Shown in pieces: positions 1-55,004 of a stretch of DNA of 64,000 bases (within the stretch, counting starts at the first letter, position 1; every line of letters begins with the position of its first letter). The notes beneath the pieces were generated by a model. It was not told the origin of the DNA. It worked only from the letters and a program-made list of their open reading frames with translations, and searched no databases. Source of the stretch: Candidatus Euphemobacter frigidus (GTDB lineage: Bacteria > Auribacterota > Erginobacteria > Erginobacterales > Erginobacteraceae); the NCBI GenBank assembly GCA_030765805.1, contig JAVCDH010000091.1, positions 19,047-83,046 on the forward strand, given 5' to 3'. The translations under genes were made by a program, and so were the position numbers.

Positions 1-132
1 TACTTCGCGATCGTTAAGATCTTCGGCGAGAAAGGGAAGAAGAAGAAAGCCGGAGTGATCGCGATGGAGAAGGCCCTGGCTCGGGAAGAACTGGAGTACG
101 AGGCCGAGGAGCACATGGCTGGAGATATGTAA
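1..132 (+). CDS. C-terminal fragment of an unidentified protein (partial, runs off window start)
   Basis: Open frame from position 1 to TAA at 130-132 (...AGVIAMEKALAREELEYEAEEHMAGDM*). No recognisable domain. A small perfect hairpin ccccgataaatcgggg follows at 157-172. Confidence 0.3.
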   Translation, partial: YFAIVKIFGEKGKKKKAGVIAMEKALAREELEYEAEEHMAGDM

Positions 133-207
133 TTCTAAATTTACGAGCTCCGATAAACCCCGATAAATCGGGGCGGAGGCTGGGCCGGTTAATTTAGAAG
201 TGGCTCC

Positions 208-1527
208 ATGGAGATATCCTCTATTGTTATTGCGACCCTCCTGGGGACAGTCCTGGGAGGGTTTTTATTCTGGATTCCGGGGATCAGGTTCTTGTCCATC
301 TTTGGAATCCTGCTCAGTCAGATATCTATCCCCCCTTTGACATGGACTAATCCTGAAGTAGTATTTGTCTTTTTCATGGCCCTGACGGTGAGCGCGTCCT
401 TCGCCGAGATTATCCCCGCCTTCTTCTTCGGAGCTCCCAGCGCATCAACGATTTTTCTAGTTGTTCCCGGGCGTAGATACCTCAAGCAAGGCTGCTCATA
501 CCAGGGGAGTATGACGGTGGGTCTGGGCAGCTTGATCGGCGTCTTCCTCCTGGTTGCCGCCACCCCTTTCTTCATTTACCTCTATACCCCCCTCTTCAAG
601 TTAATCAGAATGTATTACCGCTGGGTACCGGGTATTCTGGTGCTTTATATGGTAGGAGGAGAGTTCATCTTTCATCTCCGGCAAGTTCTTCGCTTCCACC
701 GGAAAGATGAATACCGGGCTCTCTTTATTGCTCCGGTAATATTTCTTCTTATCGGTCTCTTCGGAGTAATATCACTTCAATACCGGCAATTTGCCATCGT
801 TGACCACCAGGGGACATTCTCTTCCGCTTTTGCCGGACTCTTCCTCCTCCCTCCTCTCATCCGGCGTCTGATAAGACCGGTGGGGGGTAAGCTGGAAGAA
901 GATAATATACCAGTCTTTGGTGGTAGGAGAGCCGGCATCCTGGGAGGTATAGCCGGCGGGATCGGCGGTTTTCTAACCCTGCTACTGCCTGCTGTCTCAT
1001 CCGGGCTCGGGGCTCTCATAGCCGGTCACTTCATACCCCGGAGGAAAGAGAAAGCTTTCTTGATCTCCCAGGGGATGGTTAAGACTATCTATTCGGCAGG
1101 AGCTTTTCTCCTCTTCTTTATTCCCACCATTGCTTTTAAGCGGGGAAGCACTGCATCTATTCTAAAATCTCGCTACCATGCGGACCGAAATTTACAGTCT
1201 TTTCTTTTAATAGTCGCAGTAGTGCTCATCAGCGGGTGTCTTTCTTATTATATCCTTGGGTTAACCTCCCGTCTGGCCCGGCGGATCGTCAGGAAGGTCA
1301 CCTCCAAGATTTTATCTAGCGTGATTATCGGCCTCGTTACAGCGATTATCTTCTTCCGCTATGGCCCGGAGTATATGCTGATCTTATTTACAGCCGCCTG
1401 TCTGGGCAGTCTTCCGCTGGTCTTCGGCTGTCGCCGCAGCAATACCTTCTCCGTCATCCTTGTCCCGATTCTATTATTTATGATGGGATGGTATCAGACG
1501 GTAATTAATTTCCTGGGCTTTTTTTAA
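208..1527 (+). CDS. polytopic integral membrane protein, possibly TctA/DUF112-like permease
   Basis: ATG start, 439 aa. At least 10 hydrophobic helices and a Gly-rich loop AGILGGIAGGIGGFLTLL. Family assignment tentative. A palindromic hairpin (aaatttccc tcg gggaaattt) at 1526-1547 lies just downstream. Confidence 0.5.
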   Translation: MEISSIVIATLLGTVLGGFLFWIPGIRFLSIFGILLSQISIPPLTWTNPEVVFVFFMALTVSASFAEIIPAFFFGAPSASTIFLVVPGRRYLKQGCSYQGSMTVGLGSLIGVFLLVAATPFFIYLYTPLFKLIRMYYRWVPGILVLYMVGGEFIFHLRQVLRFHRKDEYRALFIAPVIFLLIGLFGVISLQYRQFAIVDHQGTFSSAFAGLFLLPPLIRRLIRPVGGKLEEDNIPVFGGRRAGILGGIAGGIGGFLTLLLPAVSSGLGALIAGHFIPRRKEKAFLISQGMVKTIYSAGAFLLFFIPTIAFKRGSTASILKSRYHADRNLQSFLLIVAVVLISGCLSYYILGLTSRLARRIVRKVTSKILSSVIIGLVTAIIFFRYGPEYMLILFTAACLGSLPLVFGCRRSNTFSVILVPILLFMMGWYQTVINFLGFF

Positions 1528-1673
1528 ATTTCCCTCGGGGGAAATTTAAAAAAACTTTCTTGTCACTCCGTCTTCCATATTCTGACCTCCGACTTTCGAT
1601 CGATGATTGACAATTGGGCAAGGGATTTTTTAAGATAGCGGAGTATCATCGAAATTGGGAGAAGAAAGAAAAA

Positions 1674-2723
1674 ATGCCGGAGGGAGACAGAAGCCGCGTC
1701 TCCCCGGAGGTCTTCGGGCTTCCGGTGGAGGAGATCAAGGCCGGGTTATATTCGGATAAGTACTTCGTCCGTTCCGGGGAGATCCTGAAGAGAGAAGGCC
1801 ATCATCCCCGGGTGTTGATGCAGGTCTTCGCCCGTAAACGGGGGATCATCTGCGGGATGGATGAGGCAATCGCAGTCTTGAAACTCTGCGCGGAGAAGCC
1901 GGAGGAGCTCGTCATCCACGCTCACTTCGACGGCGATCCTTTTGAGCCGATGGAGACGGTGATGACGATTGAGGGGGATTACTCCACCTTTGCCTACCTG
2001 GAGACGGTCTACCTGGGGATAATCGCCCGGGGTTCGGCGGTGGCCACCGCGGTCCGGGAAGTGGTGGAGGCGGCGGAGGACAAACCCATCCTCTTCTTCC
2101 CGGCCCGGTTTGACGGGTACGGTGCCCAGCCCCGGGACGGGTATGCCGCTCATATCGGCGGAGCCTTCGGGGTCTCCACCGACGCTCAGGCCGGGTGGTG
2201 GGGCGGCAGCGGCCTGGGAACCGTTCCCCACGGACTGATTGCCGCGTATGGGGGAGATACGGTCAAGGCCACCCTCGCCTTCGACCGGCAGATGCCGGAA
2301 GAGATTAAACGGATTGCCCTGGTTGATTTCGAGAACGACTCCGTCCGTACCTCATTGGAAGTGGCCCGGGCCCTGGGAGAACGCCTCTTCGCGGTCCGGC
2401 TTGATACCGCCTCCGATCTCCGGGACGTTTCGGTGGTTTCCGATTCAGAAGATTCTTACGGGGTCTGTCCGGAGCTGGTATGGAATGTCCGCCGGGCTCT
2501 CGATGAGAACGGTTTTAATCATGTCAAGATCGTTATCAGCGGGGGTTTCACAGCGGAGAAGATCCGGCGGTTCAGTAAATTACAGGTCCCCTTCGATATA
2601 GTTGGAGTCGGCTCAGCGCTTCTCCAGACCCAGATTGATTTTACAGCTGACGTAGTAATGGTCGATGGCAAACCCTGCGCCAAAGTCGGTCGAGAAGTTA
2701 GATTTCACAAGGATCAGAATTGA
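1674..2723 (+). CDS. pncB: nicotinate phosphoribosyltransferase (archaeal/Thermus-type NAPRTase family)
   Basis: The tool ORF starts at a TTG at 1614; ATG at 1674 (MPEGDRS...) is more likely. Motifs match archaeal-type NAPRT: EEIKAGLYSDKYFVRS, IEGDYSTFAYLETVYLGIIARGSAVATA, FAVRLDTASD, ISGG, DVVMVDGKPCAKVGR. Confidence 0.8.
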   Translation: MPEGDRSRVSPEVFGLPVEEIKAGLYSDKYFVRSGEILKREGHHPRVLMQVFARKRGIICGMDEAIAVLKLCAEKPEELVIHAHFDGDPFEPMETVMTIEGDYSTFAYLETVYLGIIARGSAVATAVREVVEAAEDKPILFFPARFDGYGAQPRDGYAAHIGGAFGVSTDAQAGWWGGSGLGTVPHGLIAAYGGDTVKATLAFDRQMPEEIKRIALVDFENDSVRTSLEVARALGERLFAVRLDTASDLRDVSVVSDSEDSYGVCPELVWNVRRALDENGFNHVKIVISGGFTAEKIRRFSKLQVPFDIVGVGSALLQTQIDFTADVVMVDGKPCAKVGREVRFHKDQN

Positions 2724-2747
2724 CAAACTCGGGCCGAATTGAACGCG

Positions 2748-3350
2748 ATGAGCGATAATGAGTCTAAAAAATTGGCTGATAAAAAGGATGATTTTGAGCT
2801 GGTCCGCGCGACCCGAAAAGGCGACAGGGAAGCATTCGGAGAACTGGTGCGGAAGTACCAGGGGAAGATCTACTCGCTTGCCTACGGTATGGTCGGCAAT
2901 CCAGCCGCCGCCGACGATCTGGCCCAGGAGATCTTCCTGAAGACCTACCGGAATATCAAGAAGTTCCGGTTTAAGTCGAGTTTCTACACCTGGCTCTATC
3001 GGATTGCCCTCAACACGGTTATTACGCGCCGGAAGAAACTTCGGGAAGATAAGCATCTGGAACTTAAGCCTCAGATCCTGGATATCCAGGGGAGCCCGTA
3101 TCTCCCGGCCCGGCTCCAGGGGGAGAAGGGGGACCGGGCGATGACCCGAAAGGAGCTGAGACGTGATATCCGCCAGGCGTTGGAGACACTCTCCGATAAG
3201 CACAAGGCGGTTGTGGTCATGCACGATATTGAAGGTATTCCTCATAATGATATCGCCGGGATTATCTCCTGTTCGGAAGGTACCGTCAGGTCGCGACTTC
3301 ATTACGCGCGCCGCCGACTCCGCGAGCAACTGGCCAACTGGCTGGAGTAG
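2748..3350 (+). CDS. RNA polymerase ECF sigma factor (sigma-70 family, sigma-E-like)
   Basis: Region 2 motif LAQEIFLKTYRNIKKF..FYTWLYRIALNTVI and region 4 HTH DIAGIISCSEGTVRSRLHYARRRLREQL. The tool start is a TTG at 2739; ATG at 2748 preferred. Confidence 0.85.
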   Translation: MSDNESKKLADKKDDFELVRATRKGDREAFGELVRKYQGKIYSLAYGMVGNPAAADDLAQEIFLKTYRNIKKFRFKSSFYTWLYRIALNTVITRRKKLREDKHLELKPQILDIQGSPYLPARLQGEKGDRAMTRKELRRDIRQALETLSDKHKAVVVMHDIEGIPHNDIAGIISCSEGTVRSRLHYARRRLREQLANWLE

Positions 3351-3371
3351 AGATATAAATGATGTGACGCT

Positions 3372-3923
3372 ATGCTCTGCAAGCAATTTAAAAAAAATGT
3401 CTGGGATTTTTTAGACGGTCGGCTGGCCGGTCGACCGGCTGATTTATACTCCGCCCATCTTAAAGACTGCCCCCGGTGCCGGGATACTCTGGCTCGGGCC
3501 CGGAGGCTGCTTGAGCTTTTGAAGGACGAATCGGTTCCGTTGCCTCCAGCCGCTTATCGGGATTCATTCTGGCCGCGACTGAGAGAGAGAATATCCGCCG
3601 AAGGCCGGCCCGCCCGCCCCCGATTCGTGCTTCGGTTCAACCCTCTTTCTTATGCCGCCATAGGGGCCGCGGCCGCGGCTCTCGTTCTCTGGATCTCGCT
3701 CCGGGAGTCTCCATCACCTTTTTTCCGGCCAATGGAGGGGAGAAGGGCCGGTCGTCCAGCGAATTTTGCCATGGCTATTGCCGGCCCGACCGCCGGGAAG
3801 GACGCACCGGAGGTTGATTACATCTCCGGGCGGTCCGGAAGCGTTGGAGGAAGAGAAAGAGCCGGTACTGATTATATCCTTCCCGGTGCCACCGGGAGTT
3901 GTGGCGGCCGGTTTGAAGTGTAG
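3372..3923 (+). CDS. putative zinc-finger anti-sigma factor (membrane-anchored)
   Basis: Immediately downstream of the ECF sigma gene. N-terminal HxxxCxxC-like motif (HLKDCPRCRD) typical of zf-HC2 anti-sigma factors, followed by one TM helix (YAAIGAAAAALVLWISL) and an extracytoplasmic tail. Confidence 0.55.
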   Translation: MLCKQFKKNVWDFLDGRLAGRPADLYSAHLKDCPRCRDTLARARRLLELLKDESVPLPPAAYRDSFWPRLRERISAEGRPARPRFVLRFNPLSYAAIGAAAAALVLWISLRESPSPFFRPMEGRRAGRPANFAMAIAGPTAGKDAPEVDYISGRSGSVGGRERAGTDYILPGATGSCGGRFEV

Positions 3924-4082
3924 GCCTTCATTAACTCTCCCGTCTCTGACGGGGGAGTTTTGCTTCTGTCGACCTTCCTTCGGCTTTGCTCAGGATCTTC
4001 GAAAAGGTTGATAGCTACGGCATTTTTGTACTATATTTTTGTAGTTGCCCCGTTGGACCGGGCTAATTTATGAGGAGGTTGA

Positions 4083-5249
4083 ATGAATAAGACACTGATA
4101 GTGACTTCCGCGGCACTCTTGCTCCTGGGCCCGATTTTCATACGACCCGGAATAACCCAAGAGAGATCGTTAATCTCCCAACTGGAAAAGGAGACAGTAG
4201 AGATCGTGCGTCGTTGCGGGCCGGCGGTGGTATCGGTGACCACGGAGCCGGTCTATCCCCACTGGTGGGATAACCTGAAAGGAGAAGAACTGCCGGCCTG
4301 GATTGAAGAGTTTTTAAAGAGTGATCTCGGGAGTCGCAAACGACGCTCCACCGGGGCCGGTTTTCTTATCAGTTCCGATGGGAAGATTTTAACCACGGAG
4401 AGTGTGATAGGCCGGGCCCGCCAGATTACGGTTGCTCTGGAAGACGGCCGGGTTCTCCCGGCCCGGGTGTTGGGAAAGTCCCCGGACTTCAATATCGCGT
4501 TACTGAAAGTTGATGGGAAGGACTTACCCTGTCTCTCCCTGGGTAACTCGTCCGCGGCGCAGGGCGGCTCCTGGGTGATCGCCCTGGGCCGGCCGTTTGG
4601 TCTGGCTACCAGCGCCTCCTGGGGGATTGTCAGTGGGTTGGGACGCGCGGGCTTGGGGATCGCTCCCTACGAGAAACTTATGCAGATCACCGCGCCGATT
4701 AACCCGGGCGACAGCGGCGGGCCGATCCTGAACTCCCGGGGGGAGGTGATCGGGATTATTGCGGCCAGTTTTTCCGGGTACCGCGAGTTTGAATTTGACT
4801 GGGACTTTATTCGCCGCTTTCACCGCGCTTTTCCTGATTCCCCGGGAATATCTCCGGGGTCATTCTTCCAGAACAGCCAGGCCTATGGGGTGGGCTTTGC
4901 CATCCCGATTGATCTGGCCAGGGAAGTTATCGCCCACCTTTCGAAAAACAAAGGTTTCAGCCGGGGTTGGATCGGTGTTTACCCGAAGGCTCTAACTGGA
5001 AAAAAGGGGGTGGCGGTTACTGAACTCTCCCCGGATGGTCCGGGCGCCCGGGCCGGCCTACGGGGAGGAGATATCATTAGCAGCGTGAACGGCCAACCGG
5101 TCGATTCGCCGCGGAGCCTTCAGAAGATGATTCTCTTCTTGCCGGCCGGGGAGACGATTGACATGAAGATAATGAGGGAAGGGGAGATCATGACGTTCCC
5201 GGTTGTGGTTGGAGAGAAGTCCGAAGGTGGTAAGGGAGAACGTCCGTGA
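4083..5249 (+). CDS. htrA: HtrA/DegP-family periplasmic serine endoprotease with C-terminal PDZ domain
   Basis: Strong SD (gaggagg) 7 nt upstream of the ATG, signal peptide, catalytic-serine motif GDSGGPILNSRGEVIGI, PDZ-like C-terminus (GVAVTELSPDGPGARAGLRGGDIISSVNG). Confidence 0.85.
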   Translation: MNKTLIVTSAALLLLGPIFIRPGITQERSLISQLEKETVEIVRRCGPAVVSVTTEPVYPHWWDNLKGEELPAWIEEFLKSDLGSRKRRSTGAGFLISSDGKILTTESVIGRARQITVALEDGRVLPARVLGKSPDFNIALLKVDGKDLPCLSLGNSSAAQGGSWVIALGRPFGLATSASWGIVSGLGRAGLGIAPYEKLMQITAPINPGDSGGPILNSRGEVIGIIAASFSGYREFEFDWDFIRRFHRAFPDSPGISPGSFFQNSQAYGVGFAIPIDLAREVIAHLSKNKGFSRGWIGVYPKALTGKKGVAVTELSPDGPGARAGLRGGDIISSVNGQPVDSPRSLQKMILFLPAGETIDMKIMREGEIMTFPVVVGEKSEGGKGERP

Positions 5250-7154: not shown

Positions 7155-7155
7155 T

Positions 7156-7311
7156 GGTGACTGGGGACTGGTGACTGGTGACTGGGGATTGGTGACTGGG
7201 GACTGGGGACTGGTGACTGGGGACTGGGGATTGGTGACTGGGGACTGGGGACTGGTGACTGGGGACTGGGGATTGGTGACTGGGGACTGGGGATTGGTGA
7301 CTGGGGACTGG
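7156..7311. repeat. tandem heptamer array (units GTGACTG / GGGACTG / GGGATTG, about 22 copies)
   Basis: Directly visible periodicity of 7 nt. It begins 2 nt after the moxR stop codon. In one frame it reads as the repeated peptide GDWGLVT (tool ORF 7132-7329), which is not a real gene. Confidence 0.9.
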
Positions 7312-7368
7312 ATAGCAAAGTTATACTAGTTTTTGACTAGTCGGATACAAAAGCAAAGGAAAACCTAA

Positions 7369-7734
7369 GTGGTTGGTATGAGGTCACATGAGGATTTAGA
7401 GGTTTGGAAGAGATCAATTGATTTAACTGTTCGAATTTATCGAATTACCGCCGGATTTCCTGATTCAGAAAAATTTGGTTTATCTTCTCAACTGCGGAGA
7501 GCAACAGTCTCTGTCAGCAGCAATATCGCAGAAGGAGCAGCGCAAGGAACTACAAAATCTTTTATAAATTTTCTGTATATTTCTCGAGGATCTATATCTG
7601 AAGTAGGCACCCAAGTTGAGATAGCAAGGAGATTACGGCTCATTGATACCGAAGTACATAAAGAATTGAAGGGAGAGATTATTATTATTGGAAAGATGCT
7701 TACTAATTTAATCAAACGTTTGAAACAAAGTTGA
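7369..7734 (+). CDS. four-helix-bundle protein (23S rRNA intervening-sequence protein / Avd-like family)
   Basis: 121 aa. Family-typical motifs EDLEVWKRSIDLTVRIYRIT, FGLSSQLRRATVSVSSNIAEG, FLYISRGSISEV. The local sequence is markedly AT-rich compared with its flanks. Confidence 0.8.
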   Translation: MVGMRSHEDLEVWKRSIDLTVRIYRITAGFPDSEKFGLSSQLRRATVSVSSNIAEGAAQGTTKSFINFLYISRGSISEVGTQVEIARRLRLIDTEVHKELKGEIIIIGKMLTNLIKRLKQS

Positions 7735-7780
7735 TATCTAAGATTTTGCGAATAAGTTGATTTATACTTTTTGTTGAGAA

Positions 7781-7818
7781 ACCAGTCCCCAGTCACCAAT
7801 CACCAGTCCCCAGTCACT
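7781..7818. repeat. heptamer array, reverse-complement orientation of the 7156-7311 array (CCCCAGT / CACCAGT / CACCAAT units)
   Basis: accagtccccagtcaccaatcaccagtccccagtcact. Together with 7156-7311 it forms an inverted pair bracketing the four-helix-bundle gene. Confidence 0.85.
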
Positions 7819-10641: not shown

Positions 10642-11672
10642 GGTTCGGCGCTCTTAACCTGATCTGGCTCTTCCTGCTCCTCCCGATCTTGGCTATTCTC
10701 TTCCGTTGTGCATGGCTTCGCAAACGGCAGGCCGAGAATCTGTTCGCCGATCGTCCCCTCTGGGAACGGTTGAGGATCGGGGTGAGTGACTTCAAGGTCA
10801 GCGCCCGGCCGGTCTTGATCCTGGCGGTTACGGCGCTTCTGCTCTTCTCCCTTCTCCAGCCCCGGTGGGGCTACCACTGGGAGGACGTTACCAGGCTCGG
10901 AATCGACCTGATTGTCGCGGTGGATACTTCCAGGAGTATGCTGGCTGATGACGTCAAACCGAACCGCCTGGCCCTGGCCCGACGTGAAATTGAGGACCTG
11001 GCCCACCTTTTGAAAGGGGACCGGATCGGCTTGATCGCCTTCTCCGGGAGCGCATTTACGCTTTGTCCCCTCACCCTCGATTACGGCGCTTTCCGGATGT
11101 TTGTTAACGATCTTTCCGTAACCACCATCCCCCGGGGAGGGACCGATATTTCCGCGGCCATCTTGAAGGCGATAGAGGCCTTTGGCGAGGGCCCGGGCAA
11201 GCACAAGGCACTCCTGATTATATCCGACGGCGAGAACCTGGCGGGCGATTACCAGGCGGCCGCCGAGGAGGCGAAGAAGAAAGGGGTAAAGATCTTCACG
11301 ATCGGGATCGGGAGTCCCGAGGGGATACCGATAAAGCTGACCACCCCGGAAGGGACGTCATATCTCAAGGACCGGGAAGGGAATATCGTGGTCAGCAAGC
11401 TGGACGAAGCGGTACTTCAGAAGATCGCGGTGGAGACCGGGGGGGCCTATCACCGGGCGACCACCTCCGGCCTGGAGCTCGAGTTGATATATCGGGACCG
11501 GATTGCCAGGATGGACAAGAAAGAACTGGAAAGCACCCGGAAGAAGGTATATGAGCACCGTTTCCAGTGGCCCCTGGCCGTTGCCCTCCTTCTCCTGGTG
11601 CTGGAATCGATTATGGGGGAGAGAAAGTGGAAGGGGTTGAGATGGTGGTTTTTATTGAGGGAAAAAGAATGA
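10638..11672 (+). CDS. batB: von Willebrand factor A domain protein BatB-like
   Basis: ATGA overlap with batA. vWA motifs DLIVAVDTSRSM, LIISDGENLAG, IFTIGIGS; C-terminal TM helix. Confidence 0.85.
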   Translation: MRFGALNLIWLFLLLPILAILFRCAWLRKRQAENLFADRPLWERLRIGVSDFKVSARPVLILAVTALLLFSLLQPRWGYHWEDVTRLGIDLIVAVDTSRSMLADDVKPNRLALARREIEDLAHLLKGDRIGLIAFSGSAFTLCPLTLDYGAFRMFVNDLSVTTIPRGGTDISAAILKAIEAFGEGPGKHKALLIISDGENLAGDYQAAAEEAKKKGVKIFTIGIGSPEGIPIKLTTPEGTSYLKDREGNIVVSKLDEAVLQKIAVETGGAYHRATTSGLELELIYRDRIARMDKKELESTRKKVYEHRFQWPLAVALLLLVLESIMGERKWKGLRWWFLLREKE

Positions 11673-12466
11673 ACGTCCAACGTCCAACGATTTTGAACAT
11701 CGAACGTCGAACATCCAACATCCAACATCGAACCCTATATCTTCTGATTGCCGCTCTTGTGCTGGTTAATCTCGGCCTGGGGAATCCGGGGGGTTCCCTG
11801 GTTAAAGAGGGAAATCGGCTTTTCAAGGAGGGAAAGTATGACCAGGCCCTGACCAAGTATAACGAGGCCCAGTTAGAGCTTCCCGATTCGTCCGATATTT
11901 ATTACAATATAGGTGATGTTCAGTACAAGAAGAGTGACTATGAAAAAGCGGCTTCGCTCTTCCAGAAAGCGATAGAATCCAAAAATCGTACGCTTAACGC
12001 CCGGTCCGGATACAACCTTGGCAATACTCTCTTCCGGGAGGGAAACTTTGATGGTGCCGCCTCTGCCTATAAGGCATCTCTTAAACTGAACCCGGAGGAT
12101 TCGGACGCGAAGTATAACTACGAACTTGCCCGCTGGAAACAGAAAGAACAGGAACAACAACAGCAGCAGGAACAGAAGCAGGAACAGAAGCAGAAGGATC
12201 AGAAGGAGAAAGAGAAAGAGGAACAGGAGCAGGAAGATAAAGATCAGAAGGACCAACAGCAGGAACGGAAGGAAGAAGAGGAGCAGCAGCCTCAACAGCA
12301 AGATCAGGAACAGAATCAAGAGCAGCAGCAGCAGCAGCCCCAGGAGATGAACCAGGAAGACGTGGAGAGACTCCTTGACGCCATGCTCTCCGAAGAAGAG
12401 GATCAACGGGGGGAGATGATGGAACAGAGGGAGGGGGAGACGCCGGAGGTTATCAAGGACTGGTAA
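11669..12466 (+). CDS. batC: TPR-repeat protein BatC-like with Gln/Glu/Lys-rich low-complexity C-terminal region
   Basis: ATGA overlap with batB. TPR units (GNRLFKEGKYDQALTKYNEAQ...), followed by a long QEQKQEQK tract. The N-terminal 21 codons are encoded by a heptamer repeat array. Confidence 0.7.
   Translation: MNVQRPTILNIERRTSNIQHRTLYLLIAALVLVNLGLGNPGGSLVKEGNRLFKEGKYDQALTKYNEAQLELPDSSDIYYNIGDVQYKKSDYEKAASLFQKAIESKNRTLNARSGYNLGNTLFREGNFDGAASAYKASLKLNPEDSDAKYNYELARWKQKEQEQQQQQEQKQEQKQKDQKEKEKEEQEQEDKDQKDQQQERKEEEEQQPQQQDQEQNQEQQQQQPQEMNQEDVERLLDAMLSEEEDQRGEMMEQREGETPEVIKDW
11672..11742. repeat. heptamer tandem array (GAACGTC / CAACGTC / ATCGAAC / ATCCAAC units) inside the 5' end of batC
   Basis: aacgtccaacgtccaacgattttgaacatcgaacgtcgaacatccaacatccaacatcgaacc. 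It is in frame, with a total length that is a multiple of 3, directly after the batC ATG. Confidence 0.8.
12120..12400. repeat. low-complexity CAG/GAA/AAG-rich coding tract (QEQKQ... in BatC)
   Basis: Visible triplet-repeat-like composition (cagcagcag, gaacagaag) that generates spurious antisense ORFs. Confidence 0.6.
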
Positions 12467-17192: not shown

Positions 17193-17266
<74 letters not shown>

Positions 17267-20954: not shown

Positions 20955-21461
20955 TTAAAATTCAATCCCCTTTCGAGCCTGTATTCCTTCCTGATAGGGA
21001 TGTTTAACCTCTCTGATCTCGCTGACATAATCGGCCAAAGAACTGATCTCGGGAGGACAGCCTCTTCCGGTCAGGACCAGCTCGATCTCTGTTGGGCAGA
21101 TCGCGATCAGATCCCGGACCCGGTCGATACTGAGCAGATTCATGTCGAGCGCGACATTGATCTCGTCCAGGATAATCAGATCGGCGGCTTTTTCGTGGAT
21201 TGCCTCCTCCGCCCAGGAAAGACCTTCTTCGGCCCTCTTTCGATCGCTTGCTTTAGCGGTCTCCCGGGTTATGAACTCGTGGGAACCGAATTGCCGCAAT
21301 TGGCAGTTCTCAAAACGGGCTAAAGCGACCAATTCCCCGGAAGGGCTCTGTTTTAGAAACTGGATCAGGCGAACTCGCTTTCCCCATCCCAGGACCCGGA
21401 GAGCGAGACCGATGGCTGCTGTGGTCTTTCCTTTTCCGTTACCGGTGTAAATATGAATCAT
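20955..21461 (-). CDS. cobO: cob(I)yrinic acid a,c-diamide (corrinoid) adenosyltransferase, CobO/BtuR family
   Basis: MIHIYTGNGKGKTTAAIGLALRVLGWGKRVRLIQFLK ... LIILDEINVALDMNLL ... LVLTGRGCPPEI. Confidence 0.85.
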   Translation of the reverse strand: MIHIYTGNGKGKTTAAIGLALRVLGWGKRVRLIQFLKQSPSGELVALARFENCQLRQFGSHEFITRETAKASDRKRAEEGLSWAEEAIHEKAADLIILDEINVALDMNLLSIDRVRDLIAICPTEIELVLTGRGCPPEISSLADYVSEIREVKHPYQEGIQARKGIEF

Positions 21462-21467
21462 ATAAAT

Positions 21468-21570
21468 TAGCTCCGCCCCTGGCGGGGCAAATTTGGGTAA
21501 TAGGGATTAGGTAATAGGGATTGGTTTACCTAATTCCTATAAAATGTTGCCTATTCAATAGTTTTATTTA
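21468..21570. repeat. ~100-nt dispersed element, copy A (GC hairpin + GGGATTAGG/GGGAATAGG short repeats + conserved tail)
   Basis: aattagctccg cccctggcgggg caaatttggg taatagggattagg taatagggattgg tttacctaattcctataaa atgttgcctattcaatagtttt. About 85% identical to the reverse complement of 37921-38020. Confidence 0.8.
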
Positions 21571-21609
21571 AATTCCGATACAGGAACTTAGCTCCCTCCT
21601 GTCGCAAAT

Positions 21610-22164
21610 TTATATTCTGTATTTTTCCACGCCTTCCCGGTAAAGATCACGACCCCGGCAGTCGATTGCCACGATCACCGGGAAGTCTTCCACTTCCAGT
21701 CGGAGGACCGCTTCCGGACCCAGATCTTCATAAGCGCCTATCTCCGCTTTTTTTATCTGTCGGGAAAGAAGAACCGCGGTCCCACCGGTTGCGGCAAAGT
21801 AAACGGCACTGTACTTCTCTATTGCCTTAATAATAGACTTTCCCCGGGGGCCTTTCCCGATCATTCCTTTCAAGCCGGCCTGGAGCAGCGGAACTGTATA
21901 AGGGTCCATCCGATATGAAGTGGTCGGTCCGGCCGGCCCGATCACCTCCCCCGGCCGGGCCGGAGCGGGCCCGGTATAGTAAATAATCTGACCCCGGAGA
22001 TCGATTGGCAGTTCTCTCCTGGCTTGAAGAAGATTCATGAAGCGCTTGTGGGCCGCATCTCGGGCGGCGTAGATTGTACCCTGGAGCAAGACTGAGTCCC
22101 CGATTCGCAGTGAGGCAATGTCGGATTCAGAGAGCGGCGTTGAGATGATAATGGGAGCGGACAT
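21610..22164 (-). CDS. class I (Fe-S) fumarate hydratase beta subunit / L(+)-tartrate dehydratase beta-like
   Basis: 184 aa, GTIYAARDAAHKRF...IYYTGPAPARPGEVIGPAGPTTSYRMDPY...GMIGKGPRG, typical FumB C-terminal catalytic domain. Confidence 0.85.
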   Translation of the reverse strand: MSAPIIISTPLSESDIASLRIGDSVLLQGTIYAARDAAHKRFMNLLQARRELPIDLRGQIIYYTGPAPARPGEVIGPAGPTTSYRMDPYTVPLLQAGLKGMIGKGPRGKSIIKAIEKYSAVYFAATGGTAVLLSRQIKKAEIGAYEDLGPEAVLRLEVEDFPVIVAIDCRGRDLYREGVEKYRI

Positions 22165-23909: not shown

Positions 23910-24259
23910 TTTCGTCTTCCTTCCCTATAATTTAAGTCCGCCCGTTTTACGGGCAGTTAACTGACTGCTTCGGAATTTTCCCGAAATAATCGGAATCCCG
24001 ATTTCATTATCTTCTAAAATAATTAAGATATCGGGACAATAAACCGCGGATTAAATGCCAGTCCGGCAGAGCCGCCTGGTCTGACGGAGATTATTTTTTC
24101 TTTAAATCAGCATAATCCGCTAAATCCGCGGTTAAATAAGTTGCCCGAAGTGAGGGCTAAGTTCTTGTGAACAAGTTAAAGTAATCAGTAATGGCCGAAT
24201 AAAGATTGGGATATTATGTTATTATACCTGAAACGTTATAAGGAGAAAAAGGTTTAACA

Positions 24260-27080: not shown

Positions 27081-27692
27081 TTACTGATCATCAATAACAT
27101 CTGGCGAACTGCCACCCGGGCCGGCTTTTAGTTCAGCTTTGCGGGCCAGGAGGTGCTTCACATAGACGGAAGTGTCGCCGCCCATCTTCAGCCGGGAGCG
27201 GGCCAGCTTCTTCTCGACTTCCTGGAGGGACATCAGGCGAATCTTCTTGTTCGGCGTGGCTTCCGGCTCCTCTTCCACCTCTTCTCCACCTTCCTCGGAC
27301 GGAGCAACTTCCTCTTCTCCTGCTGCCACGGCAGTTGTTTCTGCCGCTGGGGCTGCTTCTTCCTTCGCCGGAGCTGCTTCTTCCTTCGCCGGGGCCGCTT
27401 CTTCCTTCGCTGGGGCTGTTTCTTCCCCCGCCGGGGCCGTTTCTTCTTCCGCCGGGGCCGTTTCTTCTTCCGCCGGGGCCGCTTCTTCCTTCGCCGGGGC
27501 CGCTTCTTCTTCCGCCCGGGTTGCTTCTTCCTTCGCCGGGGCTTCTTCTTCCTTCGCCGGGGCTTCTTCTTCCTTCGCCGGGGCTTCTTCTTCCTTCGGG
27601 GCTGCTTCTTCAACTACTGGAGCTTCTTTATCAGTCGGCGTAGTTTGAGTTTGATCAGTGGTCTCTTCCATCTCTTTCTTTTCTTTGGTCAT
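27081..27692 (-). CDS. acidic Ala/Pro/Glu-rich repeat protein with conserved C-terminal domain
   Basis: GGAG SD 8 nt upstream of the ATG. About 14 tandem heptad repeats (EEAPAKE / EEAAPAK), then the C-terminal segment KKIRLMSLQEVEKKLARSRLKMGGDTSVYVKHLLARKAELKAG. The antisense frames (RRGRFF..., AGAASSF...) are rejected. Confidence 0.5.
   Translation of the reverse strand: MTKEKKEMEETTDQTQTTPTDKEAPVVEEAAPKEEEAPAKEEEAPAKEEEAPAKEEATRAEEEAAPAKEEAAPAEEETAPAEEETAPAGEETAPAKEEAAPAKEEAAPAKEEAAPAAETTAVAAGEEEVAPSEEGGEEVEEEPEATPNKKIRLMSLQEVEKKLARSRLKMGGDTSVYVKHLLARKAELKAGPGGSSPDVIDDQ
27290..27620. repeat. 21-bp tandem repeat array (coding, (EEAAPAK)n)
   Basis: Repeating unit ttcttccttcgccggggccgc and variants are directly visible. 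Confidence 0.85.
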
Positions 27693-31626: not shown

Positions 31627-31658
31627 TAAAATTTTTCTCCGAAAAATTTTAACGTAAT

Positions 31659-31724
31659 CAGTCACCAGTCACTATTCACCAGTCACTATTCACCAGTCCC
31701 CAGTCCCCAGTCACCAGTCACCAT
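31659..31724. repeat. heptamer array (CAGTCAC / CAGTCCC / TATTCAC units; same family as 7156-7311, reverse orientation)
   Basis: cagtcaccagtcactattcaccagtcactattcaccagtccccagtccccagtcaccagtcacca. The last unit contains the TGA stop (31718-31720) of the downstream dehydrogenase gene. Confidence 0.85.
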
Positions 31725-32914
31725 CTCCGCCACTTCTCTTCCAGCTCGGAATCGATCAGGGTCTCCAATAGATAATCGGTGATCTCCCGGGTGGTGGCGC
31801 CTCCCGGTCTTCCGGTGACCGTCAGTCTCTTCTCGTACTGGCCGCAGATATCCAGGGCCATCTCGAGCTTCTTGGCCCGGTCGGGATATCCTATCTGGGC
31901 CAGGAGCATCGCGGCCGCCCGGATCATGCTGAAGGGGTCCGCGAACCGTTCCCGCCCCTCTTTCACCATCCGGGGGGCGCTGCCGTGGATGGCTTCGAAC
32001 ATCGCGGAGCGTCGTCCGATATTGGCGCTCCCGGCGGTGCCGACCCCCCCCTGGATCTGGGCGGCTTCATCGGTGAGGATATCTCCATAAAGATTAGGGA
32101 GAACGAAGACCTGGAACCCGGCCCTCCGGTTGGGGTCGAGGAGTTTCGCGGTCATAATATCGATGTACCAGTCATCGGCCTCGATCTCCGGGTACTCGGC
32201 GGCGATTCGGAAGAAGGTGTCGAGGAAGAGGCCGTCCGTGGTCTTGATCACGTTAGCCTTGGAGACGGCGGTGATCCGTTGCCGGCGGTTTTTCCGGGCG
32301 TATTCAAAAGCCAGCCTGATGATCCGCTCGGATCCGGGACCGGTTATTACCTTAAAATCAAGAGCCAGGTCATCCGTTACTAGGAAGCCGTCGCTGCCCA
32401 GCATGTAGGCGCCTTCGGTATTCTCCCGGAAGAAGGTCCAGTCGATCCCGAGTTCAGGGACCCGGACCGGACGGACGTTGGCGAAGAGATCGAGTTCTTT
32501 GCGTAGGGCGACATTGGCACTTTCAATGTTGGGCTCGGGGTCGCCCTTACGGGGGGTGGTAGTAGGTCCTTTTAAAAGGACCGGGCATCTCTTTATCTCC
32601 TCCCGGACCTGATCCGGAATGGCCTGATGGACCGCGGCTCGGTTCTCGATGGTCAACCCTTCAATGAAACGGAACCGGACCGCGCCCTTCTCGAGTTCCG
32701 GTTTCAGAATCGTCTCCAGTACTCTCTGTGCCTCCCGGGTGATGACCGGGCCGATCCCATCCCCCCCGATAATCCCGATCCGGAGCGGTCGAAGACCACG
32801 GTAATCGATCCATTCGGGTGCTTCTTTCAGCCTCTCCACTCGACCGAGTTGCGCCTCCAGGATGCGCTCGAACCGCTTCCGGGCTTCTTTAACCGCTGCC
32901 CGGTCAATCTTCAT
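31718..32914 (-). CDS. isocitrate / 3-isopropylmalate / homoisocitrate dehydrogenase-family enzyme (NAD(P)-dependent beta-decarboxylating dehydrogenase)
   Basis: ATG at 32914 (MKIDRAAV...). IGIIGGDGIGPVITREA, NLYGDILTDEAAQIQGGVGTAGSANIG, AMFEAIHGSAPRMV. The start overlaps the upstream synthase gene by 11 nt. Confidence 0.8.
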   Translation of the reverse strand: MKIDRAAVKEARKRFERILEAQLGRVERLKEAPEWIDYRGLRPLRIGIIGGDGIGPVITREAQRVLETILKPELEKGAVRFRFIEGLTIENRAAVHQAIPDQVREEIKRCPVLLKGPTTTPRKGDPEPNIESANVALRKELDLFANVRPVRVPELGIDWTFFRENTEGAYMLGSDGFLVTDDLALDFKVITGPGSERIIRLAFEYARKNRRQRITAVSKANVIKTTDGLFLDTFFRIAAEYPEIEADDWYIDIMTAKLLDPNRRAGFQVFVLPNLYGDILTDEAAQIQGGVGTAGSANIGRRSAMFEAIHGSAPRMVKEGRERFADPFSMIRAAAMLLAQIGYPDRAKKLEMALDICGQYEKRLTVTGRPGGATTREITDYLLETLIDSELEEKWRRW

Positions 32915-34745: not shown

Positions 34746-34793
34746 CTTTTGTAGGTTATAGTGAAATGACAGGAAAAGAAAAGAAAAAAATGA

Positions 34794-34909
34794 GGATGGG
34801 GAATGGGGAATAGGGAATGGGGAATAGGGAATGGGGAATAGGAATGGAGAATGGGGAATAGATAACGAGGTTTCCCCCCATTCCCTACTCCCTATTCCCC
34901 ATTCCCCAA
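34794..34909. repeat. palindromic heptamer array (GGGAATG / GGGAATA units and their reverse complement CCCTATT / CCCCATT)
   Basis: Left arm 34794-34860, 14-nt loop, right arm 34875-34909. The right arm encodes the last codons (LGNGE) and the TAG stop of the TPR lipoprotein gene. Confidence 0.85.
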
Positions 34910-35605
34910 TTTCGCTCGTTCCGGGGAGGGATAAAGCTCGAGACTCTTCTTGAGATGGTCGGCGGCCGCCTCTTCCTCTCCTCGTTCGTGGTAGATCAGG
35001 CTTAGATGGTAATGGGCCTCCCCCCGCAGATAGTTCTCTGCTAGGGGGGTCTCCTCCAGCGCGGATTTGAGGGTGGAGATGGCTTCCTCTTCCCGCCCTT
35101 TCCGGTAGAGGGCCCATCCGAGACTGTCCAGGTAGAGGTAGCGGTTCTCACGATCAGCCTTGATAGCCCGTTCCAGAAGCCCGATCGCGGCCGGGAGGTT
35201 CTTCCGGCGGATGATATAAACCCAGGCCAGGTTGTTGAGCGCCTGAGGCTGCTCCGGCTCCCGCTCCAGAGCCTGGAGGTAGAGTTCTTCCGCCTGGCCC
35301 AACTGATTGAGCTTGATATAGACGTTACCGGCGTTGATATAGGCCCGGGTCAGAGTGGGGTCCTTCCGCCGGGCGAGCCGGTACTGTTTCAGAGCTCCGT
35401 CCAGATCCCCCTCTTTCTCCAGCAGGACGCCGCGGTCGTTATGATAAGCGCCCTCCCGTTTCATAGTCCGAGAGTCCATTGGGGCCGTTTGACTCGGCAT
35501 GAAATGGTCGAGATCGACACCCTGAACGAACACCCGGTAGTTGGAGCATCCGGCCAGAGAGAGAAGAAAGACCAGGAGAGGGAATACGGTTCTACGGCAA
35601 TTCAT
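34892..35605 (-). CDS. TPR-repeat lipoprotein
   Basis: Signal + lipobox (LLSLAGCSNY), TPR units (AYINAGNVYIKLNQLGQAEELYLQALEREPEQPQALNNLAWVY). Confidence 0.6.
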   Translation of the reverse strand: MNCRRTVFPLLVFLLSLAGCSNYRVFVQGVDLDHFMPSQTAPMDSRTMKREGAYHNDRGVLLEKEGDLDGALKQYRLARRKDPTLTRAYINAGNVYIKLNQLGQAEELYLQALEREPEQPQALNNLAWVYIIRRKNLPAAIGLLERAIKADRENRYLYLDSLGWALYRKGREEEAISTLKSALEETPLAENYLRGEAHYHLSLIYHERGEEEAAADHLKKSLELYPSPERAKLGNGE

Positions 35606-37703: not shown

Positions 37704-37704
<1 letters not shown>

Positions 37705-37883
37705 CAGCTGATCCCCAGGCAGTCGAGGCAGAGAAAGCGGGCGTTTCTCTGGGTCTCCGCGTTCTCCTTGAGGGTAATTCCCCAGATAATCATCGCGATC
37801 GCCAGCAGAAGCAGCAGGATTGCCGGGTGGAATTGCTTTTTAAAGAGGAGGTAGTAAATTCGCGGTGTCCTATCGTTGCGCAT
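37704..37883 (-). CDS. small membrane protein (hypothetical), translationally coupled to the polyferredoxin gene
   Basis: ATG (MRNDRTPRIYY...), one TM helix, C-terminal CLDCLG. Start uncertain; the tool start at 37964 is a GTG. Confidence 0.3.
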
Positions 37884-37920
37884 AATGACATCTCCAGGTT
37901 TCCGCTTCGTAATTTGAATA

Positions 37921-38020
37921 AAACTATTGAATAGGCAACATCGTATAGAAATTAGGTGAACCACTCCCCATTCCCTAATCCCTATTCCCCAAATTAGCCC
38001 CGCCAGGGTCGGGCTAATTT
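37921..38020. repeat. ~100-nt dispersed element, copy B (inverted relative to copy A at 21468-21570)
   Basis: aaactattgaataggcaacat...ccactccccattccctaatccctattcccc aaattagccccgccagggtcgggctaa. The reverse complement aligns along its length with 21468-21570 (shared atgttgcctattcaatagttt, GGGATTAGG repeats, ccctggcgggg hairpin). Confidence 0.8.
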
Positions 38021-38547
38021 AACTTAAGCAGGGCTTTAATATCTGCCTCGAAGATATTCTTCGGTCGATAGCCGATGTACTTCCGGTAGATGTTGCCTTT
38101 CCGGTCGATAATGAAGGTGGTGGGGATTCCGAAGATGCCTCCGTAAGTTCTGTCTACCCGTCCATCGAAGAGCAGGATAGGGTAATTTATGTTATATTTT
38201 TTTACAAATGGTCGCAATACCTGCCCGGGATTCCGGTCCAGGCTGAGCCCCAGAATCATTAACCCCCGTCCGGAGTATTTTCTGTAGAGGTCAACGAAAT
38301 CCGGTATCTCCACCAGGCAGGGCGGACACCGGGTGGCCCAGAAATCAAGGATGATAACCTTCCCGCGGTAGTCGGAGAGTCTGACCCGGCCGCCGCCGAA
38401 TTTTTGCAGATCAAAGTCGGGAGCGGCCTGTAACCCCGCAACTTTCTTTTTAGTCACGGCCTTCTCTTTTGTCTCACAGCCATTCAGCCAGATAGCTGCG
38501 AAGAGAGATAGAATGATGATCGTGGCAAGGTTACGCGTCTTCTTCAT
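38014..38547 (-). CDS. TlpA/ResA-like thiol-disulfide oxidoreductase (thioredoxin fold) lipoprotein
   Basis: Signal + lipobox (WLNGCE), active site WATRCPPC, AhpC/TSA-like fold. Confidence 0.8.
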   Translation of the reverse strand: MKKTRNLATIIILSLFAAIWLNGCETKEKAVTKKKVAGLQAAPDFDLQKFGGGRVRLSDYRGKVIILDFWATRCPPCLVEIPDFVDLYRKYSGRGLMILGLSLDRNPGQVLRPFVKKYNINYPILLFDGRVDRTYGGIFGIPTTFIIDRKGNIYRKYIGYRPKNIFEADIKALLKLN

Positions 38548-45036: not shown

Positions 45037-45110
45037 TATTTTTTATCTTATAGAAATTTGTATTTTTTGACAGGATTTACAGGATAAAATGAAAAAAATT
45101 CGTAACTGCT

Positions 45111-45256
45111 CAGGTTGTCAGGTTCACGGTTCACGGTTTGTTGCCTTGCGCACTTCATGTGCCAATTGCCAAACCTCAATATCTTCAGACCGTTCAATCT
45201 TTATCACTCTCTAACCGTGAACCTTTGAACCGTGAACCCCTGAACCCCTGAACCGG
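45111..45256. repeat. inverted heptamer arrays (GGTTCAC units / GTGAACC units) flanking a ~70-nt core
   Basis: Left arm caggttgtcaggttcacggttcacggttt, right arm aaccgtgaacctttgaaccgtgaacccctgaacccctgaaccgg. Lies between the GT4 start and the GT2 stop. Confidence 0.8.
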
Positions 45257-45264
45257 AGTAGTTA

Positions 45265-52764: not shown

Positions 52765-52784
52765 AATAAAACTATCCTTTATCC

Positions 52785-54916: not shown

Positions 54917-55004
54917 AATAAGAAGATTGCATTAACAACAAATTTAAGCTGTAATAATCTCATCCTCTACAAGCATTTTCATATATTAAATCGAGAATAC
55001 TAAT

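Follow-up and report, generated by a model that had tools for sequence, protein, structure and literature searches.

A dispersed, structured intergenic repeat with a heptamer core in Candidatus Euphemobacter frigidus

Introduction

Two copies of a sequence of about 100 nt, inverted with respect to each other, lie between genes in a 64,000-nucleotide stretch of the Candidatus Euphemobacter frigidus genome (contig JAVCDH010000091.1, positions 19,047 to 83,046; the whole of this stretch is called the window below). What kind of element are they, and how did they come to occupy these spacers? A preliminary description proposed a mobile element resembling repetitive extragenic palindromic (REP) sequences or miniature inverted-repeat transposable elements (MITEs), or else a family of small RNAs or regulatory sites. 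We find that the two copies belong to a family dispersed over the genome, and we think it somewhat probable that this family is a species-specific, non-coding intergenic repeat of ~100-130 nt that derives from heptamer tracts of the short tandemly repeated repetitive (STRR) type, was spread by recombination or gene conversion, and serves as a structured spacer between cistrons.

Results

Two homologous copies in the window

Copy A (21462-21595, plus strand) and copy B (37893-38024, minus strand) were aligned with MAFFT and are homologous. Blastn matched them at 89.3% identity over 112 nt (E = 9e-30), and a repeat search of the window returned them as its longest inverted repeat, with arms at 21473-21587 and 37898-38012 that are 86% complementary over 115 nt without a gap. 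The 25-mer ATGTTGCCTATTCAATAGTTTTATT and the 21-mer CCCTGGCGGGGCWAATTTGGG, which spans the hairpin junction, each occur exactly twice in the window, against 0-0.01 occurrences expected from shuffled sequence. The similarity is far beyond chance, and a chance origin is excluded. Both sequences, with their flanks, are identical across at least ten independently assembled metagenome contigs from different samples and are therefore not an assembly artefact.

The preliminary description, which reported an element of about 100 nt in two inverted copies of roughly 85% identity, was accurate in this respect (86-89% over 112-115 nt). It placed the copies at 21468-21570 and 37921-38020; the loci were right, but the true extent is slightly larger, about 21462-21595 and 37893-38024. 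Similarity sets in at TAAATTAGC and fades past ...CAGGAAC, and a profile search with nhmmer delimited copy A at 21463-21584 (E = 3e-36) and copy B at 38024-37902 (E = 2e-35).

All four genes flanking the copies are on the minus strand, so copy A, on the plus strand, is antisense to its neighbours, and copy B, on the minus strand, is sense to its own. Copy A occupies the 148-nt gap between the stop of a fumarase-C gene (21610-22164, minus strand, stop at 21610) and the start of cobO (20955-21461, minus strand, start ATG at 21461-21459). Copy B extends from the last codons and the stop of a redoxin/TlpA-like gene (38014-38547, minus strand, stop TAG at 38016-38014) to just short of the start of a gene for a 59-aa protein (37704-37883, minus strand, ATG at 37883), with a polyferredoxin gene next downstream. 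The first bases of copy B contain the final codons and stop of the redoxin gene (AAT TAG), and in copy A the cobO ATG is 6 nt from this same end of the element. The gene map thus agrees with the earlier statement that both copies lie in short gaps 5' of minus-strand genes, and adds that the orientation of the element is opposite at the two loci.

A family of copies between co-directional genes

Collections were scanned with an exact 19-mer of the tail of the element, TTGCCTATTCAATAGTTTT; copies that differ within this 19-mer escape, so the number of copies obtained is a lower bound. Among metagenome contigs, 22 stretches matched, six of which carry the whole element and represent five new loci: L036 and L037, both on one 84-kb contig, L040, L047 and L051 (L035 duplicates L037). 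The new copies align over the entire element (nhmmer E = 1e-23 to 6e-38) and are additional to A and B, because contigs equivalent to the window are absent from the 19-mer matches. Proteins flanking L036, L037, L040 and L051 are exact matches to proteins of the Ca. E. frigidus metagenome-assembled genome (MAG), and the CobO protein of the window is 100% identical to the protein of the NCBI Ca. E. frigidus MAG. Judging by these matches, at least seven copies, on five contigs, are present in the genome of this species. The L037 stretch also has a CCCCAGT/CCCCATT tract, as does the window. A profile of the seven copies, run with nhmmer on ~400 kb of retrieved sequence, returned the known copies and weak heptamer-only matches and no further full copy. 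The samples that carry the window sequences are Ace Lake (Antarctica) metagenomes, and the closest named relatives of the polyferredoxin are from Candidatus Auribacterota, the PVC (Planctomycetes-Verrucomicrobia-Chlamydiae) group and Ca. Erginobacter occultus.

In 185,579 species genomes (one per species), the 19-mer gave nine single chance matches, at which the rest of the element is absent. Among viral contigs, AATTTGGGGAATAGGGATT had no match and a 17-mer had one, within a coding region that carries no other feature of the element; the plasmid and phage collections gave no match. From these scans, and from the lack of the tail in the orthologous spacers of relatives (see below), we conclude that Ca. 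E. frigidus is the one species to have the family with the tail.

The genes on either side of a copy are co-directional at all seven loci; B, L037 and L051 are in sense orientation to them and A, L036, L040 and L047 in antisense (three against four), and each copy takes up nearly the whole spacer whichever way it points. In every copy, at most 50 nt separate the G-rich tract from the gene boundary 5' of it; in the sense copies, the stop codon of the upstream gene is 0-8 nt from the left end of the element and the tract begins 23-28 nt past that stop. The positional rule of STRR-type repeats (intergenic, flanked by aligned open reading frames (ORFs), with the G-rich strand no more than 50 bp after a stop or before a start) therefore describes seven copies out of seven.

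These data bear on the simplest alternatives, namely that the element is a cis-regulatory RNA for a particular gene, such as a cobalamin riboswitch for cobO, or that the pair arose by chance or by a local duplication. One copy is indeed located 5' of a cobalamin-pathway gene, and the 64-kb window by itself contains just two copies. However, a search of the window against Rfam returned a single tRNA above the gathering threshold and, at E <= 10, chance matches to eukaryotic miRNA and lncRNA families far below it; no family was matched by the element, which is antisense to cobO, and a cobalamin riboswitch or other known RNA was accordingly rejected. The other copies precede unrelated genes (for FtsW, dihydroorotase, a sulfatase, an AAA ATPase and a TPR protein), and neither chance nor local duplication accounts for at least seven copies on five contigs or for an E value of 9e-30 between A and B. 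These explanations are refuted by the results and hardly credible. The preliminary description had allowed that a pair restricted to these two loci would be just a local duplication; at least five more distinct copies are found elsewhere in the same genome, and the broader expectation of a dispersed, structured, non-coding family, loosely similar to REP and enterobacterial repetitive intergenic consensus (ERIC) sequences, has held. A regulatory site shared by the downstream genes is unlikely because the copies occur in both orientations, and the same goes for a small-RNA gene, given both orientations, the absence of an Rfam match and the lack of a conserved promoter.

Modular architecture

The modules of the element are arranged in the order GC hairpin (H1), AAATTT, two to four G-rich heptamers (GGGGAAT/AGGGATT; RGGGAWT), an inverted heptamer arm (CCTAATTCCTAT) and a tail of ~60 nt. 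The consensus of the seven copies reads (A/T)TAAATTAGC, a GC stem-loop and GC(A/T)AATTT, followed by GGGGAAT AGGGATT (AGGGAAT AGGGATT) GG, TTCA, CCTAATTCCTAT and AAnATGTTGCCTATTCAATAGTTTTATTGAAATTCCGAAGCAGGAA(n)(TTAG). Outside the simple-repeat part, the copies (at least seven) are 85-93% alike.

H1, a hairpin of 5-8 bp flanked by AAATTAGC...GCTAATTT, is found in five of the seven copies and in three stem versions: GCCCC..GGGGC in A, B and L051, GCGCC/GGCGC in L036 and GCGGC/GCCGC in L037; L040 and L047 have none. Four heptamer units are present in A, B, L037, L040 and L051 and two in L036 and L047, and all seven copies align in register. The inverted heptamer arm is missing from L037, and the right-hand extension from L036 and L047. 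The modules thus vary independently: L036 shares its hairpin class with L037 and its two-unit form with L047. Such reticulate combinations point to recombination between copies or to repeated insertions and deletions.

In copy A (plus strand), H1 is at 21470-21488 (GCTCCGCC-CCT-GGCGGGGC, with AAATTA and AAATTT as flanks), and its 3' arm on the minus strand holds the ribosome-binding site of cobO, the Shine-Dalgarno sequence GGAG. The heptamer tract GGGTAAT AGGGATT AGGTAAT AGGGATT GG follows at 21495-21524, then the inverted arm CCTAATTCCTAT at 21529-21540, which forms a second hairpin (H2) with the tract, and the conserved non-repetitive tail AAAATGTTGCCTATTCAATAGTTTTATTTAAATTCCGATACAGGAAC at 21541-21587, which contains an AT hairpin (TCAATA/TATT(G)A) and a small hairpin (TTCC...GGAA). 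In copy B (minus strand), H1 (AAATTAGCCC-GACCCTGGCG-GGGCTAATTT) is at 37991-38020, with the redoxin stop codon within its 5' arm; the tract GGGGAAT AGGGATT AGGGAAT GGGGAGT GG at 37961-37990 has four runs of three or more G and thus a canonical G-quadruplex motif; the arm CCTAATTTCTAT is at 37945-37956, with H2 kept through G.U pairs; and the tail ACGATGTTGCCTATTCAATAGTTTTATTCAAATTACGAAGCGGAAAC is at 37898-37944.

Tandem Repeats Finder (TRF) reported period 7/14 repeats in the tract of copy A, at 21496-21522, with 1.9 copies of a 14-nt period (100%) and 3.3 copies of a 7-nt period. The internal GGGATTAGG-type repeats of the preliminary description are therefore present but are better described as a tandem heptamer tract of period 7; similarly, the landmark ttacctaatt, listed there as a shared sequence, does occur in both copies but acts as the inverted partner that pairs with the tract. 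The 7-nt units are arranged head to tail, as in STRR sequences, and the units GGGGAAT, AGGGATT and GGGTAAT are near the published consensus GGGGA(C/T)T / GGGAATC without being identical to it. A simple sequence repeat (SSR) consists of the repeat alone; here, a unique 60-nt tail and the hairpin flanks are conserved along with the tract, so the element is more than an SSR.

The tail of all seven copies contains a mini-ORF of five codons, ATG TTG CCT ATT CAA TAG (21544-21561 in copy A; 37941-37924, minus strand, in copy B), whose ATG is outside the search word. It is all the coding potential that the element has, and as a coding sequence it was rejected; no ribosome-binding site is present upstream, and we treat it as probably coincidental.

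H1-like GC hairpins without heptamers were also seen upstream of gene starts at 4046-4066, 24141-24160 and 62195-62245, with the flanks known from H1 (TTGCCCC..GGGCTAATTTAT and AAAAGTAGCGGC..GCCGCTATTTTTAT). The hairpin at 4046 comes directly after a good TTGATA-18-TATATT promoter and would form a stem-loop at the 5' end of the mRNA. The picture suggests that H1 is a generic hairpin type of this genome and not necessarily an end of the element.

Predicted folding of the G-rich strand

The GC hairpins ascribed to both copies are present in predicted folds. A and B each fold as H1 followed by a long H2, in which the heptamer tract pairs with the CCTAATTCCTAT arm (z = -3.8 and -1.7, respectively). 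RNAalifold, applied to the seven copies, adds an outer helix between the heptamer TAGGGAAT and the tail sequence GTTGCCTA, and an AT hairpin, TCAATA-GTTT-TATTGA. Standard pairs make up 95.4% of the pair cells in the seven copies, against 36-52% when the partners are slid. The covariation check recommended in the preliminary description gave, among these seven related sequences, CG<->GC double changes at two pairs of H1 and one-sided changes at five of the nine pairs of H2, which always stay paired by G.U on the G-rich strand. In line with this, the G-rich strand is predicted to fold better; its structure is more stable than that of the C-rich complement in seven of seven copies.

The G-rich tract raises the possibility of an element that works at the level of DNA, through the G-quadruplex or i-motif potential of a four-unit tract, as a roadblock to RNA polymerase or a modulator of R-loops, a role that has been put forward for GGGNATC repeats. 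Four units are indeed present in five of the seven copies, the canonical (G3+N1-7)3G3+ motif is present in B, L040 and L051, and both the positional rule and the preference for four units are those of repeats that form G-quadruplexes in vitro (PMC4692102). However, A, L036, L037 and L047 do not have four G3 runs, the tract is paired with the inverted arm in the predicted folds, and the conserved tail is left unexplained. We consider this reading improbable.

Promoter and terminator signals

Another possibility is a portable cassette, in which H1 would terminate transcription of the upstream gene and the tail, through TTGCCT-16-nAAATT, would promote that of the downstream gene. The layout of the sense copies is suitable, with H1 directly after the stop and the tail before the next start; the tail contains a weak σ70-like match (seven to eight of 12 positions), and on the C-rich strand of copy A, H1 followed by TAATTTAT was flagged as terminator-like. 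A consensus scan, however, found no σ70-type promoter in A or B, nor was a conserved promoter found upstream. Strong promoters of this genome, for instance those up- and downstream of the tRNA at 17193-17266, have the form TTGACG-17/18-TATAAT, which differs from the TTGCCT-16-nAAATT that the tail offers at best. There is no terminator-like site at B; the one at A is solely on the C-rich strand, and its end is 5 nt short of the cobO ATG. Past the H1 stem, the G-rich strand reads AAAUUUGGG and lacks the U-run of an intrinsic terminator. Four of the seven copies are inverted, so that a promoter in them would fire antisense into the preceding gene. With scans that were negative or inconsistent, the cassette was rejected, and we hold it to be distinctly improbable. 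A generic scan of the window for GC hairpins gave too many matches in coding regions to be informative.

The two loci in related genomes

Synteny at both loci is kept in relatives from Auribacterota. At locus B, the spacer of a relative with 78% polyferredoxin identity (L054) opens with TAG as the stop codon, continues with a GC hairpin (TGCCTTCGGCCC) and TAATTT, and then has four heptamers (AGGGAAT AGGGATT GGGGAAT GGGGAAT), past which the sequence is unrelated and contains no tail; a second relative, with 74% identity (L052), has just a degenerate G-rich stretch there. The presence of the left half without the tail in L054 indicates that the hairpin-plus-heptamer half is old or recurrent in the lineage. 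At locus A, two relatives with 68-70% CobO identity (L056 and L057) keep the adjacency of the fumarase gene and cobO, and the element is absent. At 68-78% protein identity, the orthologous spacers are too diverged to be aligned or to place insertion boundaries.

In L057, the 94-nt spacer between the fumarase gene and cobO is filled from stop to start codon by a different repeat, which has units of the GCGGATT type, one inverted unit and, before TAAGTTCT, a GCCC..GGGC hairpin. The repeat family found in this spacer thus differs between species. This other repeat (L057 3895-4005) recurs at 24040-24180 of the window and represents a second dispersed family, TAAACCGCGGATTAA..TTTTTTCTTTAAATCAGCAT..CGCGGTTAAATAAGTTGCCCGAAGTGAGGGCTAAGTTCT, with long identical blocks at non-orthologous loci of genomes that share 70% protein identity. 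Its architecture parallels that of the element in combining units with an inverted one and with a GC hairpin whose flanks are TTAGC-like.

Tests of mobility

End-to-end inverted alignments of the copies were no better than those of shuffled sequences in any of the seven (p = 0.12-0.79), that is, no terminal inverted repeats were found. An 8-nt direct repeat, TTAGCTCC, which resembles a target-site duplication, flanks copy A on the plus strand, on the left at 21467-21474 and on the right at 21588-21595 (p about 0.07); these are two of its four occurrences in the window. Removal of the interval leaves a plausible short cobO leader with the GGAG Shine-Dalgarno sequence. Flanking direct repeats above chance were not found at the other six copies (p = 0.19-0.98), so the check for target-site duplications yielded a direct repeat at A alone and no consistent duplication. 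The MITE label of the preliminary description is hence not supported. TTAG (A, B, L051, L036) or GTAG (L037) stands at the left flank in five of the five hairpin-bearing copies; there are hairpins close to either end, and the copies end raggedly on the right. The motif (T)TAG(C) is apparently part of the ends of the element itself. No presence/absence polymorphism was seen at loci A and B, where all assemblies are identical.

The most serious competitor of the preferred account is a mobile, non-autonomous transposon, either a MITE or a palindrome-associated element derived from IS200/IS605, that would be mobilised in trans and insert beside TTAG/AAATT sites at gene boundaries, possibly as single-stranded DNA (ssDNA) with G-rich hairpins as the recognised ends. 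A transposon would account for many dispersed copies in both orientations, for their species-specific expansion, and for the presence of different repeat families in one spacer of two species. The direct repeat TTAGCTCC around copy A, whose excision restores a plausible cobO leader, and (T)TAG(C) at both boundaries of several copies are in line with insertion; so are hairpins near both ends in the absence of terminal inverted repeats, with strand-asymmetric pairing by G.T/G.U that extends to the antisense copies. Yet six of the seven copies are not flanked by a direct repeat above chance, and terminal inverted repeats are lacking. The ends are ragged and the modules reassorted; H1-type hairpins without the element at 4046-4066 and 62195-62245 imply that H1 may pre-exist, and the left half of locus B (stop, hairpin and four heptamers) stands without the tail in the relative at 78% identity. 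No transposase was identified in the retrieved sequence, which represents part of the genome. We regard a transposon as unlikely.

One metagenome contig, ERZ27315621 k141_218779 (L021), is identical to the window lineage to the right of its position 5087 and is diverged, differently arranged sequence to the left, the switch being within a PALP gene. Compared with L020, its positions 1-5087 carry fatty-acid synthesis genes in place of glycosyltransferases, and the contig comes from a recombinant strain or else was assembled as a chimera from two related Auribacterota. As a breakpoint mediated by the element it was rejected, as no element is present at the junction.

Other heptamer arrays and features of the window

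Heptamer arrays seem to be a lineage-wide trait of Auribacterota. In the window, the G-rich array (TGGGGAC/TGGTGAC/TGGGGAT)n at 7155-7311, with exact GGGGACT/GGGGATT units, starts at the stop of moxR (AAA_3), and its C-rich inverse at 7781-7817 ends 10 nt before the start of a DUF58 gene. Between these arrays is a gene for a 23S_rRNA_IVP/bAvd-like four-helix-bundle protein (7381-7734; Pfam E = 4e-37). The interval 7155-7817 looks like a cassette in the normally tight moxR-DUF58 junction, and its arms would form a long stem as in a ribosomal intervening sequence. The array (CAGTCAC/CAGTCCC/TATTCAC)n at 31654-31728 has the stop of the isocitrate dehydrogenase gene (31732) on one side and the start of the malic enzyme gene (31640) on the other, and its G-rich strand is the coding strand, directly after the stop. 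At 34790-34913, between a TPR gene, whose stop is inside the array, and an HMGL/dCache gene, inverted (GGGGAAT/AGGGAAT)n arrays 16 nt apart would form a hairpin of ~35 bp. This region is two heptamers (14 nt) shorter in the ENA contig k141_466282 than in eight other assemblies (L020 12973-13076 versus L021-L029), which suggests a slippage polymorphism. The junction AAATTGGGGAAT within it resembles AAATTTGGGGAAT of the element (nhmmer E = 8e-6). Further tracts are (GAACATC)n, with units GAACATC / AACGTCC, in this genome and in the relative at 78% identity (window 11672-11733; L054 13424-13463; L010 19728-19767), and (GGTTCAC)n at 45110-45260, followed after ~90 nt by the inverse (GTGAACC/TGAACCCC)n, in a 228-nt spacer of two minus-strand genes. 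Spacers of relatives also contain inverted arrays, of (GAAACCC)n/(TTTCGGG)n and of (GAATATC)n/(GATATTC)n (L052 12576-12724; L054 12329-12510 and 7360-7500). Where the gene ends are known, the arrays are G-rich after stops on the coding strand and C-rich before starts.

A more far-reaching reading would see in the element one family of a lineage-wide Auribacterota system that would actively install hairpin-plus-heptamer modules between cistrons, filling spacers from stop to start codon in the manner of the second family in L057, and would exchange them between co-occurring species, with folded G-rich single strands being recognised by a dedicated protein, for which the 23S_rRNA_IVP protein (7381-7734) would be a candidate. 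Its chances are slim in our estimate. If true, it would constitute a new kind of structure-specific mobile or regulatory module instead of passive simple-sequence DNA.

Two further features of the window were recorded. G+C content falls from ~54% to 38-43% over 48000-64000, and this last part of the window is a possible island of horizontal origin. At 27345-27611, within a minus-strand ORF (27081-27692), there are 12.9 repeats of a 21-nt unit (87% matches), which would give a 7-residue protein repeat.

Discussion

Origin, spread and possible effect

On the account that we prefer, a non-coding repeat spread by recombination, the family would have arisen from heptanucleotide tracts (STRR or GGGNATC type) of the kind common in intergenic spacers of this lineage, and would have been copied and pasted recently between such spacers within the species. 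A likelier route than cut-and-paste transposition would be ectopic recombination or gene conversion, with the shared hairpin and heptamers as anchors, because the copies are mosaic, neither terminal inverted repeats nor consistent target-site duplications accompany them, and a relative has the left half at the corresponding locus; slippage would then change the number of heptamers. The element is presumably co-transcribed with the cistrons on either side, and for this reason its effect, if any, is likely to be structural. Two to four stem-loops, possibly joined by a G-quadruplex in the four-unit copies, could punctuate polycistronic transcripts by attenuation, RNase processing or protection of mRNA ends, as opposed to acting as a gene-specific switch. 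Either orientation would set a stable stem-loop between stop and start.

Several points weigh against this account. Co-transcription and an effect at the RNA level are things that we infer. The high conservation of the tail was partly forced by the search word with which the copies were found, and the conserved tail has no demonstrated role; the count of at least seven copies, being one of exact 19-mer matches, is a lower bound. The structure statistics come from seven related sequences, with a structure derived from these same sequences, and 15 of 500 shuffles still attain the observed percentage of paired cells. The antisense copies, in which the operon mRNA is not the G-rich strand, also show the changes kept paired by G.U, and this fits a role as ssDNA or antisense RNA better than punctuation of mRNA. 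Finally, the 8-nt direct repeat at copy A is more in line with transposition than with gene conversion.

The family does not imply a new biological principle, and the neighbouring cobO and polyferredoxin genes are not implicated in it. It does provide a handle on the mode of dispersal (conversion versus transposition), on the G-rich strand as RNA or ssDNA, and on effects on operon expression. Ca. E. frigidus was described from Ace Lake (Antarctica) in a paper that makes no mention of repeats (PMC9324843), and we came across no account of repeats of this kind in Auribacterota. Time-series metagenomes exist for this habitat, and on the practical side such repeats are relevant when MAGs are assembled or strains are typed from Ace Lake data.

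Comparison with known systems

To our knowledge, heptanucleotide repeats (STRRs, GGGNATC, TAACTGA) have been known for more than 30 years, from cyanobacteria, Xanthomonas, Geobacter and Beggiatoaceae, and have no accepted origin or function. In terms of size and location, the element recalls ERIC sequences and the bacterial interspersed mosaic elements (BIMEs) built from REP sequences, which are non-coding, hairpin-forming repeats of ~30-130 nt found in transcribed operon spacers of enterobacteria; they may point either way, and their effects on mRNA stability depend on the orientation. ERIC and REP sequences are said to have been treated by Hulton in 1991 and De Gregorio in 2005, and the link of REP sequences to REP-associated tyrosine transposases (RAYTs) reportedly by Nunvar in 2010 and Messing in 2012. 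The TTAG/GTAG that precedes H1 is reminiscent of the GTAG before REP hairpins. Neither class, however, has a heptamer SSR core; ERIC has terminal inverted repeats and a TA target duplication, and REPs, which are imperfect GC-rich palindromes of 20-40 nt in tens to hundreds of near-identical copies, are far more uniform, far more numerous and linked to RAYTs.

Other heptamer repeats offer partial parallels. TAACTGA direct repeats, described by MacGregor (2015) in marine Beggiatoaceae, cyanobacteria and some Bacteroidetes, occur as 2-6 units, mostly a few nt from a start codon (PMC4679880). Like the element, they are intergenic heptamers of patchy phylogeny, for which a post-transcriptional role has been proposed; unlike it, they are A/T-rich, are mostly in forward orientation upstream of starts, and have no hairpin or tail module (PMC4679880). 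The multicopy elements of Geobacter metallireducens reported by Aklujkar et al. (2009) include a family of four tandem heptamers (GGGACCG/GGACCGG, 49 copies) and a class 3 with five MTYCTGA units (PMC2700814). In those parts of that report on which we draw, they are similar to the element in being detectable by BLAST, built on a core of four or five heptamers, species-specific (absent from G. sulfurreducens) and proposed to be regulatory, but the units are different, copies occur also within genes, and a hairpin-plus-tail architecture does not feature in these parts (PMC2700814). At the hmw locus of Haemophilus influenzae, the passages concerned give experimental support for a heptanucleotide SSR that, together with a 5'-UTR (untranslated region) stem-loop targeted by RNase III, sets downstream expression (PMC12721329). 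The resemblance, as far as these passages go, is one of mechanism only, since hmw is a single contingency locus with long phase-variable arrays and is not dispersed (PMC12721329).

The closest counterparts are the intergenic repeats of Rehm et al. (2015), GGGAATC in Xanthomonas and GGGGA(C/T)T in Nostoc PCC 7120, with 2-26 units and a preference for four (PMC4692102). Situated between aligned ORFs, they follow a stop (coding strand) or precede a start (non-coding strand) by no more than 50 bp, are sometimes arranged as inverted pairs, form G-quadruplexes in vitro, and are mostly transcribed, with no known function (PMC4692102). The TGGGGAC/TGGGGAT arrays of the window have exactly the Nostoc unit (PMC4692102). 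The element itself shares with these G-rich heptamers the unit of three to four G plus A/T, the intergenic location, the four-unit preference, the positional rule and the inverted pairing. Heptamers of this kind are said to correspond to the cyanobacterial STRR1, with the unit CCCCA(A/G)T, reportedly from work by Mazel et al. in 1990; the correspondence would cover those of Rehm et al. The host is different, an Auribacterota (PVC-related) MAG as opposed to Xanthomonas and Nostoc, and so is the unit of dispersal: the tract forms part of a longer unit that also includes a conserved, non-repetitive tail of 60 nt and an A/T-flanked GC hairpin, and it is this whole unit that is dispersed at 85-93% identity. 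What is novel, relative to the known heptamer repeats, is thus an STRR-type tract inside a longer unit that is copied whole, with strict placement, reassorted modules and conservation of pairing on one strand.

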